From Promethearchaeota archaeon (GTDB lineage: Archaea; Asgardarchaeota; Lokiarchaeia; Sigyniarchaeales; SOKP01), in NCBI GenBank assembly GCA_019058245.1, contig JAHPZJ010000006.1, positions 64,001 to 128,000 of the forward strand: DNA of 64,000 nt, written 5' to 3'. The notes under the pieces are model-generated. The model saw only the letters and a program-made list of their open reading frames with translations, had not been told where the DNA came from and ran no database searches. Positions within the stretch are counted from its first letter, which is position 1; each line of letters begins with the position of its first letter. Below, piece after piece: positions 47,957-57,067 of the stretch. A program made the position numbers and the translations under genes.

Positions 47957-48155
47957 TATTTTTTCTCCTCAAAAATTTTTTCCGATATATCATTTCGATT
48001 ATTTTTTTTTATTTTTTTCTGATATTTTTTTTTTTCACTCATATTCAATATATTTTATGAATTGGATTAGAATTTCTTAAAGAAGTGAAAGATAGTTGGA
48101 ATGATATAAGAATATCTTTAATTTTTAAAAAAAACAGAAATTCTAATAATTAAAC

Positions 48156-48183
48156 CATTGCGCACGTTCTACGCGTGCCAATG
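48156..48183 (-). promoter_or_regulatory. Hairpin enclosing the stop codon of leader 2
   Basis: Minus strand CATTG-GCACG-cgTAGaa-CGTGC-g-CAATG; U8 tract downstream at 48127-48134. Confidence 0.7.
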
Positions 48184-48246
48184 TAATACCCAAAACCAAC
48201 TAATGAAAAATTTTCTTAAGCTTAAGTTTTTTTTAATTGTTGTCAT
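48169..48246 (-). CDS. Trp-rich leader peptide 2 (MTTIKKNLSLRKFFISWFWVLHWHA*)
   Basis: Hand-translated 25-aa uORF with 3 Trp in the last 9 codons; paralogous to the trpD leader. Confidence 0.7.
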   Translation of the reverse strand: MTTIKKNLSLRKFFISWFWVLHWHA

Positions 48247-48295
48247 TTTTCATTCAAAAGGTTTTGTTAATTATACAAATGTAATAATTAATTGA

Positions 48296-48310
48296 TATTT
48301 ATATTTTTTT
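48296..48310 (-). promoter_or_regulatory. BRE/TATA promoter of leader 2
   Basis: AAAAAAATATAAATA on the minus strand, 50 nt before the ATG; identical to the trp promoter element. Confidence 0.65.
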
Positions 48311-48385
48311 AAATTCCTTAAATAATGATAAATTAGATTATTTTTTCTAATTTCTATTGTCTATTTAAGATTTAGAAAATCTTAA

Positions 48386-48604
48386 ATGGATATATATGCA
48401 TGGAATACGAAAGTGAGCAGTTTGTTTGATTTCAATAAAGATCCCAGATTGAATAATAATATCATATCAGAAAATCCAGATAAAGTGAAAGAACTACTTG
48501 AACTGTGTTGGAAAGATGCCCGAGAACCAATTGACTTTGATTTCATGCGCCATTTTAAAGATCGACTGGGTTGTACACCAGTAACTCGAAAATTAACCAA
48601 ATAA
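48386..48604 (+). pseudogene. C-terminal remnant of a sulfatase-like gene
   Basis: SLFDFNKDPRLNNNIISENPDKVKEL resembles the sulfatase C-terminal LYDL..DP.E..N....P..V.EL motif; no upstream catalytic part. Confidence 0.5.
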
Positions 48605-48673
48605 TCCAAAGGGATTTTTTTTACTAAATAATTTCACCTAAAATAAATTAATAATAGTATAGTGAAAAAAGAT

Positions 48674-48759
48674 AGTTAGTAATATTTAACAAAATGTGAT
48701 AAAAACCTAACATTTATATATGTTAATTATTTCTAATAATATGTTAATTATTTCTAACA
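48674..48759 (+). promoter_or_regulatory. Four-copy operator array TGTTA-N8-TAACA around TATA box TTTATATA (48713-48720)
   Basis: Copies begin at 48674, 48695, 48721 and 48742, upstream of the membrane protein/Xre gene pair. Confidence 0.7.
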
Positions 48760-48792
48760 AATTATGAAAAAAATATAACAAGTGGTGATAAA

Positions 48793-49110
48793 ATGGATAT
48801 AGGAATAATAATTCTGTTGATTCTAGGAATATTTCTGGCACAAATTTTGATTTTTCTATTTGTGTTCAGATATACAAAGAAAAAAGGGATACTTCTAAGA
48901 GATGAAATGACCCGCGGGATGATGCGTAAATCTAGCGAAATTTCGTTTTGGGGATCTTGGGTTTTCTGGATCATTATCTTAATATTAGAATCAATTTCAG
49001 AGTTCACCTTCAATTGGTATATCTATTGCGGACTAATAGGAATGGGAGTTATTTACGTAATTTCTAATGCAATCATAAAATTCCAATTAAAAAACAAAGG
49101 TCAGGATTAA
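48793..49110 (+). CDS. Small membrane protein (DUF2178-like)
   Basis: Three TM segments, RDEM...KS motif; coupled to the Xre gene by a TAATG overlap. Confidence 0.7.
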
Positions 49111-49352
49111 TGGCGAAGAAAACTAAAGAAGAGGAGTTTACTACCAGAATCAAGGAATTACGGGCTAGATATAATCTGACTCAGAGTGATTTAGCTAAAA
49201 TGGTTAATGTCCGGCGCGAGACGATCCTTTATATTGAAAAAGGAAAATATAATCCTTCTCTTGTTCTAGCTCATAAAATCTCAAAAGCATTGAACTCTAA
49301 AATCGATGAGATATTTCTCTTTGCAGATGATCAAGACACTAATCCTATTTAA
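49110..49352 (+). CDS. Xre/Cro HTH transcriptional regulator
   Basis: [44 protein letters not shown]. Confidence 0.93.
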
Positions 49353-49376
49353 TCATTTTTTTTTTTAAGATTAAAA

Positions 49377-51498: not shown

Positions 51499-52215
51499 TT
51501 ATTTATTTTTAATTCCAAAAGCTCTTGGACATTTAACTCTGCATAGATTACATTTTTGGAGTGTATATCCTTTCTGATGTTTAAAATTCGATATTGGCCT
51601 ACAAAGTGCTTGATTTACCGTTTCTCCATTTAATGCTTGTTGAGGACAAAATTCAATACATATATTACATGAATCCAAACATCCTTCATAAGTGGCAATT
51701 GCATCTGCTTCTAGCTCAATATCTACCAGAACGGCTCCAAGTTGGATCATATTACCATAAATATTATTAATTAAAAGAGTATTTTTTCCAATAACTCCAA
51801 GACCACTAAGATAACCTGCATGTCTTAATGACAAAATTGCTCTTCCATAAGACCTATCTGGTTCCCAATACTCGTATGGGTCATCTGATGGTATGGGGAC
51901 ACATCTTATTCCCAATTCCTCTAAGCTATATAAAATATCAATAGTTAATTTATCAATAATCCTCATAATCATGCTATTTACAAAAGTATATGGAACACAA
52001 TTAACAGCATAATTTGAACTGTTAGGAGTTCTTTTTAAGAATACAACTATTGATTTACATTCTGGAAAAATATCAGTAGGATGAAATCCTTTAGGCGCAT
52101 CTTTAAATCTATCAACTGATGCAATTCCACATAGATCAGCTCCTAAATTATTTATTCTATTCTTAATATAGTTAGAATTAATATTATTGAGTAACTCATT
52201 TTCAGTATTTCTCAC
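51499..52215 (-). CDS. Epoxyqueuosine reductase (QueG)-like Fe-S protein
   Basis: GADLCGIA, LSLRHAGYLSGLG.IGKNTL, CLDSCNICIEFCP, CNLCRVKCP. Confidence 0.8.
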   Translation of the reverse strand: MRNTENELLNNINSNYIKNRINNLGADLCGIASVDRFKDAPKGFHPTDIFPECKSIVVFLKRTPNSSNYAVNCVPYTFVNSMIMRIIDKLTIDILYSLEELGIRCVPIPSDDPYEYWEPDRSYGRAILSLRHAGYLSGLGVIGKNTLLINNIYGNMIQLGAVLVDIELEADAIATYEGCLDSCNICIEFCPQQALNGETVNQALCRPISNFKHQKGYTLQKCNLCRVKCPRAFGIKNK

Positions 52216-55708: not shown

Positions 55709-56764
55709 TCATAATATATTATTTAATTTTTGTTTATCTCCACCAGAAACCTCAATAAAATTCTCGAGTTTTTGAAAAGCTTTGCCTTCTTCTATAGAAT
55801 TTTTTGCCATAGAAATCCCCTCGTCAATGTCTTTTACAATATTAGCGCTAGTAAGAGCTAAGGCAGCATTCATCAAGACAGTATTATACTTAGCTCCTTT
55901 TAATTGATTTTTGAGGATACCTAACGCAATTTTCAGATTCTCATCAAGATTTCCAGCTAATATTTCTTCCACGGTACAATCTGGAAGGTTGAAATCTTTA
56001 TTCGTTAAAGCATAAGATTCAATATTCCCATTTTTAACCTCAGTTATATAATTAATTCCTATAGGTGCTAACTCATCAATTCCATATGAATTATGTACTG
56101 TGAATACATGTTTTCCTCCAAGATTTCCAAGGACTTTTGCCATAACTGGTGCTAAATCTTTTTGGAAAACGCCTAGAGTGTGATAAGGAGCATTTGCAGG
56201 ATTTGTTAAAGGTCCTAATATGTTAAAAACAGTTCTAATTTTTAGTTCCCTCCTTGTTGGCATTGCATGTTTCATTGCAGGATGAAATAAAGGTGCAAAC
56301 ATAAAACCAATACCTACTTGTTCTATACATTTTTTAACCTCTTCTGGGGATAAATCAATTTTTACACCTAACCCTTCTAATAAATCTGCACTCCCACATT
56401 TACTCGTAACTGCTCTATTTCCGTGTTTTGCAACAGGAACGCCAGCACCCGCTACAACTAATGCTGAGATCGTACTTATATTAAAGGTTTTTACTTTATC
56501 TCCTCCAGTACCACATGTATCCAATAATTCTCTATTTATTTGCGGTTCAATTCGATTTGCGAATTCACGCATAATTCGCGCAAAACCTGTGATCTCTTCT
56601 ATAGATTCACCTTTCATATTTAAAGCTGTTAAAAATGCTCCCAATTGGGAAGCAGAAACATTTCCACTCATTATTTCTCTCATAATATTTTCTGCTTCGC
56701 TTGTTGATAAATCAACTTTTCTGATAATTTTATGTAATCCGTTAATTATTTTTTCTTCAAACAT
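55709..56764 (-). CDS. trpD: Anthranilate phosphoribosyltransferase
   Basis: DTCGTGGD..TFNIST, AKHGNR, GSAD, RTVFNILGPLTNP. Confidence 0.96.
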   Translation of the reverse strand: MFEEKIINGLHKIIRKVDLSTSEAENIMREIMSGNVSASQLGAFLTALNMKGESIEEITGFARIMREFANRIEPQINRELLDTCGTGGDKVKTFNISTISALVVAGAGVPVAKHGNRAVTSKCGSADLLEGLGVKIDLSPEEVKKCIEQVGIGFMFAPLFHPAMKHAMPTRRELKIRTVFNILGPLTNPANAPYHTLGVFQKDLAPVMAKVLGNLGGKHVFTVHNSYGIDELAPIGINYITEVKNGNIESYALTNKDFNLPDCTVEEILAGNLDENLKIALGILKNQLKGAKYNTVLMNAALALTSANIVKDIDEGISMAKNSIEEGKAFQKLENFIEVSGGDKQKLNNIL

Positions 56765-56941: not shown

Positions 56942-56961
56942 AGCGCGTTCTTATGCGCGCC
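56942..56961 (-). promoter_or_regulatory. Hairpin enclosing the stop codon of the trp leader
   Basis: Minus strand G-GCGCG-caTAAgaa-CGCGC-T, a GC island in very AT-rich DNA. Confidence 0.72.
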
Positions 56962-57004
56962 AAGACCAATGCCAACGAAAAGGAATTATTTTTTCATTAG
57001 CCAT
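56951..57004 (-). CDS. trpL: trp operon leader peptide (MANEKIIPFRWHWSWRA*)
   Basis: Hand-translated 17-aa uORF with WHWSW, ending about 187 nt upstream of trpD on the same strand. Confidence 0.8.
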   Translation of the reverse strand: MANEKIIPFRWHWSWRA

Positions 57005-57052
57005 TTTTTTAAACCATATTTCATATATCTTGAAAGAATTAAGGATTCTCAC

Positions 57053-57067
57053 TATTTATATTTTTTT
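57053..57067 (-). promoter_or_regulatory. BRE/TATA promoter of the trp operon
   Basis: AAAAAAATATAAATA on the minus strand, 49 nt before the leader ATG. Confidence 0.65.

Follow-up and report, generated by a model that had tools for sequence, protein, structure and literature searches.

A tryptophan-codon leader of an old Asgard archaeal subfamily lies before a GNAT-methyltransferase gene

The window, that is, the whole 64,000-nucleotide stretch of a Lokiarchaeial contig (JAHPZJ010000006.1) analyzed here, carries on its minus strand a gene for a fusion of a GNAT acetyltransferase with a class I SAM methyltransferase, and this gene is preceded by a short upstream ORF (uORF) with TGG at codons 17, 19, and 23 (Table 1). 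The initial annotation had proposed this uORF as a second tryptophan leader in addition to that of the trp operon in the same window, and the proposal was borne out. A sequence model of the leader core, with which we scanned this genome and 135 genomes of the family, gave two strong matches in this genome (E ~2e-15 each), one of them the uORF in question, with the next match at 0.027. The three Trp codons, the W-[H/R]-A-stop ending of the two leaders, and the position of the stop codon in a hairpin loop were as described. The uORF of the trpD leader (57004-56951, 17 aa) lies 8.76 kb from the copy before the fusion gene, and the spacers from uORF stop to gene start, annotated as about 200 nt, are 186 nt and 212 nt in the two cases, the latter being U-rich and G-poor. 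A 6-codon out-of-frame mini-ORF at 48253-48233 overlaps the start of the leader before the fusion gene and is present in five of seven orthologues. Inside the trp operon, a gene for a QueG-like 4Fe-4S protein (51499-52215) is located between trpA and trpE; the same arrangement occurs in G024, the gene also precedes trpE in L093, and it is absent from this place in G018, G026, and G077.

Table 1. Features of the two leaders and their surroundings in the window
Feature	Position in the window	Strand	Remark
GNAT acetyltransferase fused to class I SAM methyltransferase, 385 aa	46799-47956	minus	target gene
Shine-Dalgarno-like GAGGAG of the downstream gene	47965-47970	minus	seen in sequence
5' relic of ~85-aa small ORF, rest deleted	47976-48012	minus	spacer aligns with L090
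P2 long-range helix, 11-12 bp	48147-48136 with 48077-48066	minus	encloses irregular U-rich stem
U8 tract after P2 5' arm	48134-48127	minus	~20 nt after P1, within AU-rich helix
P1 hairpin, 10 bp and a one-base bulge	48183-48156	minus	5' arm holds last Trp codon, stop codon in loop
TAG stop of uORF	48171-48169	minus	
Trp codons of uORF	48198-48196, 48192-48190, 48180-48178	minus	
Leader uORF, 25 codons/25 aa	48246-48169	minus	start, stop, and length invariant in 7 orthologues
Archaeal promoter motif, A-rich BRE-like run and TATA box (48303-48296)	48296-48310	minus	sequence motif
trpG 3' end relic	48361-48393	minus	aligns with true trpG end of L088
trpD leader, type A (promoter, uORF, hairpin)	56943-57067	minus	heads trpDCFBA-queG-like-trpEG

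Two short identities between the leaders had been taken as signs of their kinship. The identical 15-mer is indeed present at 48296-48310 and 57053-57067, 50 and 49 nt upstream of the respective ATGs, but it consists of an A-run and a TATA box. Because the genome holds seven copies, five of them without any W-leader, its identity says little about the kinship of the two copies; it is an ordinary archaeal promoter. The TATA box is located 56-57 nt 5' of the uORF ATG in all seven orthologues with a readable start, and transcription of the leader would begin ~25 nt before the uORF. The 11-mer that follows the stem was likewise found in both window copies, but the genome contains 16 copies of it, and homologues do not conserve it as such; their conserved core at this site is CAwTGG.

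The leader model matched 91 of the 135 family genomes, and 69 of the 73 inspected matches sit before trp genes (trpB2, trpE, or trpA), so that the family is placed almost exclusively before such genes. A true trpD was identified in 40 of the 161 genomes of the class. In most genomes where trpD comes first and the DNA before it is available, a W-rich uORF ends 110-510 nt upstream, and none was seen at the examined loci where trpD is internal in its operon. The distant closed genome G055 has a second leader copy heading trpB2, which was revealed by RNA-library contigs; these come from one study, cover the leader and trpD, and cannot show start, strand, or level. This genome has two copies, and two to four trp-type copies are present in G103, G104, G156, G085, G110, and G055. 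The initial annotation's reading of a reusable module serving a Trp regulon thus stands, and the leader family across Lokiarchaeia/Promethearchaeia is very probably Trp-sensing. Analogous leaders for other amino acids, for which it had proposed a search, also occur in this genome. An unbiased scan gave as its top match a Leu-rich leader before a leuA-like gene (C10:40915-41016), with its stop directly followed by a hairpin, and also recovered an Ile-rich leader before ileS (C31:10547-10621); a pattern scan yielded a His-rich leader near 141160 on C30. No leader was found before the two class-Ib tRNA-synthetase genes of this genome, trpB2 was not found in this assembly (76% complete), and the other W-rich short ORFs inspected, on C14, C8, and C30, were rejected as off-frame readings of genes.

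Class-wide, the Trp leaders encode peptides of 16-35 aa with two to six Trp residues and freely varying neighboring residues. A recurrent feature is the ending W-[R/H/Q]-x(0-2)-stop, and the Trp codons are spaced in alternation instead of standing in tandem. Several loci depart from the common architecture. The G055 leaders before trpD and trpB2 (L114 and L115), both contained in RNA-library contigs of one study, are near-identical and represent a third architecture, in which a long hairpin begins right at the stop codon. At L006 (G051), two different Trp leaders stand in tandem 647 and 212 nt before trpD, and in L084, L150, L171, L176, and L183 the uORF continues through the hairpin owing to a shifted stop codon. 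L131 (G110 C147) carries a duplicated type-B leader (see below) and a trpA fragment in a genome in which trpD and trpE were not found. A Phe/Trp-rich leader at L193 (G085 C17:11057-11121), possibly an aromatic amino-acid sensor, precedes a member of the small-ORF family described next and a non-trp gene of 347 aa. A conserved, all-helical small protein of ~85 aa (motif GPEK) is the first gene product after many Trp leaders, either between leader and trpD (L003, L070-L073, L076, L078, L079, and L084) or at L090:966-1232; Pfam, Atlas, and PDB fold searches returned no match for it, and a role as a regulator is conceivable. The N-terminus of trpD in the window (start at 56764) resembles the start of this small ORF, as if the ORF had been precisely deleted and its start fused to trpD.

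The leaders fall into two subfamilies. Type A heads mostly trpB2 and also many trpD operons including that of the window, and type B, ending in W-H-A-stop, heads trpE, trpA(E), trpD, or a queG-like-trpEG unit. The copy before the fusion gene has the type-B ending W-H-[A/V/E]-stop, the P1 hairpin, CAATGG, and the arms of the P2 helix. The identity of its core is 70-84% with most type-B leaders from other genera and 58% with the trpD leader of the window. In a leader tree built on only 82 columns, the A/B split (98/90) is the deepest, the two window copies lie on opposite sides of it, and the eight leaders of GNAT-methyltransferase genes (GNAT leaders) group together in a single clade (100/96) within type B. 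These identities and the tree speak against a recent origin of this copy by duplication of the local trpD leader, which we therefore rejected; the two copies represent old subfamilies. The compensatory G-C to A-U change between the two stems is real, but it is a difference between subfamilies, and the P1 stem hardly varies within type B.

The hairpin at the stop codon, P1, is longer in the copy before the fusion gene than annotated, and its motif occurs at exactly two sites in the 3.09-Mb genome even at two mismatches. P1 was predicted with a probability of ~0.85 in the ribosome-free state, and between 24 and 26 of the 26 type-B leaders retain any given pair, most often without change or through G-U swaps. 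The long-range helix P2 had been overlooked in the initial annotation, as had two gene relics discussed below. P2 was recognized in 23 of 28 type-B leaders, where 24-78 nt separate its arms, and these 23 have a mean of 10.5 of 11 pairs, compared with 8.7 (maximum 9.2) in shuffled sequences. In the P2 alignment, 95% of cells are paired and variation occurs mainly through G-U, which would fit RNA rather than a DNA palindrome; covariation support is modest because true double changes are few (four pairs). The folding z-score of the whole region was only -0.59, so that stability alone gives no evidence, and Rfam scans of the leader returned no relevant match.

Folding with simulated ribosome footprints predicted P1 to behave as a ribosome-controlled element and revealed no conserved, mutually exclusive antiterminator of the 2:3 type. 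The 3' arm of P1 lacks a conserved downstream partner (mean pairing 0.26 when the ribosome is stalled, with inconsistent partners). P2 was predicted in every ribosome state (means 0.71, 0.75, 0.76, and 0.78), and for this reason the folding does not show a mutually exclusive switch. A GC-rich intrinsic terminator hairpin directly followed by a U-tract is absent from the leader before the fusion gene. In the GNAT leaders, neither sequestration nor release of the ribosome-binding site (RBS) by a stalled ribosome was predicted (mean accessibility change +0.01); in type-A leaders, RBS accessibility rose slightly with a stalled ribosome (14 up and 3 down of 48). Exposure of the U-tract was predicted to be lower with a stalled ribosome in five of eight GNAT leaders and higher in none, a small effect in eight related sequences.

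The target gene has no known role in Trp metabolism. The methyltransferase part of its product is closest to MM_2633 and CysG/BelI and retains the His-His-Asp metal motif described for methyltransferases of this type (PMC11408123). Because of this relationship, it is plausible that the fusion protein methylates a small carboxylic acid. All eight fusion genes with at least 68% identity and available upstream DNA carry the type-B leader, which was evidently recruited to the fusion once. Both the leader and trp linkage are absent from a fusion in G090 with 57% identity and from those stand-alone homologues of the GNAT or the methyltransferase that were examined. Since a Trp leader of the trp-gene family sits before the fusion gene, the arrangement suggests that this gene is under tryptophan control.

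Traces of the history of the locus remain in its flanks. The leader closely follows trpG or a trpG end at three of the eight fusion loci, with direct adjacency in L032 and L088. In the window, the trpG 3' end relic shows that promoter and leader originally followed trpG directly and that ~1 kb of other genes (to ~49376) was inserted later. On the other side, the spacer could be aligned with that of L090, in which a degenerate small ORF is present (score 122 against a shuffle maximum of 78), and it contains the 5' relic of this ORF. In L093, G090, G091, and G092, trpG is followed by genes of the same cluster that have no leader of their own, and in L093 and G092 these genes belong to a unit headed by a type-B leader. 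G036, a 95% complete genome that yielded no trpD, trpE, or trpB1, retains the leader before the fusion gene, and so does L092, likewise away from any trp operon. In the simplest history, the locus would have originated as the head of a former second trp unit, the trp genes of which were deleted, leaving the leader on the tail genes. The 3' end of trpG resembles an insertion hotspot, with repeated trpG fragments flanking cassette genes (HTH protein, membrane protein, and methyltransferases) at 48386-49376 of the window, at L227 (G110), and at L231 (G090); for this reason, the linkage of the fusion gene to trpG may be passive.

Of the fourfold sites, 26% are unchanged among the seven orthologues of the leader before the fusion gene, and of the 35 that contain G/C not one is, compared with 69% of P1 and 75-83% of the P2 arms. 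By this comparison, purifying selection on this leader is evident. The initial annotation held that the Trp codons and the RNA structure had been kept rather than the peptide. P1 and P2 are indeed conserved, but the N-terminal part of the peptide is conserved among orthologues and the Trp codons are partly eroded: W19 is invariant, W17 was lost in three orthologues through three different changes, and W23, which is additionally constrained by pairing in P1, was lost in one (L092). GNAT leaders have two or three Trp codons, whereas all 12 type-B trpE/trpA leaders have four. Either relaxed sensing or tuning of the sensor to deeper starvation would account for the smaller number, and we consider this copy probably still Trp-responsive.

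We propose that the leader is a ribosome-read tryptophan sensor, a leader-peptide attenuator of subfamily B heading the GNAT-methyltransferase unit. When Trp is plentiful, the ribosome would reach the uORF stop and leave, P1 would close, and aCPSF1/FttA would cut the bare U-rich RNA 25-70 nt downstream, so that transcription would stop ahead of the gene. Under scarcity of Trp-tRNA, the ribosome would stall on UGG and hold P1 open, thereby favoring P2 and/or blocking FttA, and transcription would read through. With two or three Trp codons instead of four, the leader would respond only to deeper starvation. We infer every step of this scheme that follows sensing. Archaeal transcription terminates at U-tracts, aided by aCPSF1 (PMC8116511), aCPSF1/FttA prefers U-rich RNA (PMC11616081), and its exclusion by ribosomes has been hypothesized (PMC8116511, PMC11616081). 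A gene for aCPSF1 above the family cut-off is present in this genome. Because of the predicted change in U-tract exposure, the U-rich preference of aCPSF1, and the presence of its gene, we favor the model in which a Trp-starved, stalled ribosome prevents aCPSF1/FttA termination at the U-tract, although we put its chances no higher than even; that the leader acts through termination at all appears slightly better supported.

The same stalling on Trp codons might instead affect mRNA stability or downstream translation, through cleavage after full transcription, long-range refolding, or re-initiation. Such an output would accommodate the formation of P2 in all ribosome states and the slight rise in RBS accessibility in type-A leaders, and mycobacterial Cys leaders act on translation (bioRxiv 10.1101/834739). 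However, the start codon of the fusion gene is 210 nt away, P2 ends more than 100 nt before it, the length of the spacer 3' of P2 varies widely, and the GNAT leaders showed no accessibility change, all of which make this output unlikely. A different question is whether this copy still senses at all. It could be a relaxed or vestigial leader from the deleted trp unit, kept because its promoter and RNA fold are needed for basal expression, with the GNAT-methyltransferase gene a passenger under little Trp control. The repeated loss of Trp codons, the small-ORF and trpG relics, the trpG fragments scattered among cassette genes in G110 and G090, and the existence of leaderless, unlinked homologues would all agree with this. 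Yet no orthologue has fewer than two Trp codons; start, stop, and frame are intact in all orthologues that could be read, to a protein identity as low as 68%, in contrast to the diverged neutral sites; and the leader persists in G036 and L092 away from any trp operon. In known attenuators, loss of the stall codons shuts expression off, so decay of such a leader would not be neutral. We therefore consider a vestigial leader rather improbable, and continue to favor a functional, ribosome-read sensor.

The recurrent W-[R/H/Q]-x(0-2)-stop ending and the alternating Trp codons raise the possibility that the peptide itself is the sensor, either as a TnaC/AAP-like arrest peptide with which free Trp stalls the ribosome at the stop codon and represses the gene, or as a trans-acting small membrane peptide. 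Trp count, length, and neighboring residues vary too freely across the class for this to be attractive, L092 lacks the last Trp, and the G-C pairs of P1 account for the conserved ending, all of which leaves sensing by the peptide very unlikely. Chance similarity in AT-rich DNA would be a concern in this 29% GC genome, where the 15-mer and the 11-mer are common. It was refuted by the E-values of the leader model with their distance from the next match, by the family-wide placement before trp genes, and by conservation above that of neutral sites, and its probability is negligible.

The sensor proposed here resembles E. coli trpL (Rfam Trp_leader) in its short uORF with cognate Trp codons clustered near the end, three in this case, in the hairpin overlapping control codons and stop, with P1 in the place of the pause/protector-type 1:2 hairpin, and, as regards the family, in its position before trp genes; this copy itself precedes a trp-linked GNAT-methyltransferase gene. 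It differs in its archaeal TATA promoter, the alternating rather than tandem Trp codons, the lack of a GC-rich terminator with a direct U-tract, the antiterminator that could not be found, the 140-210 nt spacer, and the lack of an Rfam match. E. coli tnaC, the example of Rho-dependent attenuation, has a leader of ~25 codons and an untranslated spacer of ~200 nt. Both lengths recur here, the genome combines a long untranslated spacer suited to factor loading with a termination factor, and in the proposed model a stalled ribosome likewise blocks that factor. However, the leader has multiple Trp codons, a biosynthetic logic (on when Trp is low), and no TnaC-like fixed arrest motif, and the factor would be aCPSF1/FttA, not Rho. 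With the mycobacterial polycysteine sORF 'ribulon' (bioRxiv 10.1101/834739) the family shares several operons, each with its own cognate-codon sORF, and a regulon without a DNA-binding regulator; unlike that system, it uses Trp instead of Cys, is not leaderless (a 5' UTR of ~25 nt is inferred), and showed no RBS sequestration. The archaeal trp regulators TrpY of Methanothermobacter and Tar (TK0271) of Thermococcus are DNA-binding proteins acting at initiation (PMC6737238). They too place archaeal trp genes under the control of amino-acid supply, whereas the Asgard element is a translated cis RNA. The leader would work like a bacterial attenuator or the mycobacterial ribulon, and is not filed under trpL because neither the defining terminator nor the antiterminator could be recognized.

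Leader-peptide attenuation is a textbook bacterial device. Literature searches, with most subscription journals outside their coverage, found no paper on an archaeal attenuator of this kind, and the archaeal trp control that they did find depends on DNA-binding proteins (PMC6737238). The present analysis adds that the leaders divide into subfamilies A and B, that type-B leaders possess the P2 helix, and that a non-canonical gene has been recruited. The leader is a portable module of two old subfamilies that heads trp units across an Asgard family and has moved before a new gene, and it serves as a label that points to an uncharacterized acetyl/methyltransferase as Trp-related. As a tentative and rather speculative extension, Asgard archaea may run Trp, and apparently Leu, Ile, and His, regulons through a stalled ribosome that gates the CPSF73 orthologue aCPSF1/FttA without a bacterial terminator switch, and the unit that the Trp leader has recruited may consist of a GNAT and a carboxyl-methyltransferase which, under Trp starvation, modify or detoxify either a TrpRS inhibitor or a molecule related to anthranilate or Trp. 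The leader also offers a short natural construct with which competition between ribosomes and aCPSF1/FttA for nascent RNA could be examined in the lineage closest to eukaryotes.
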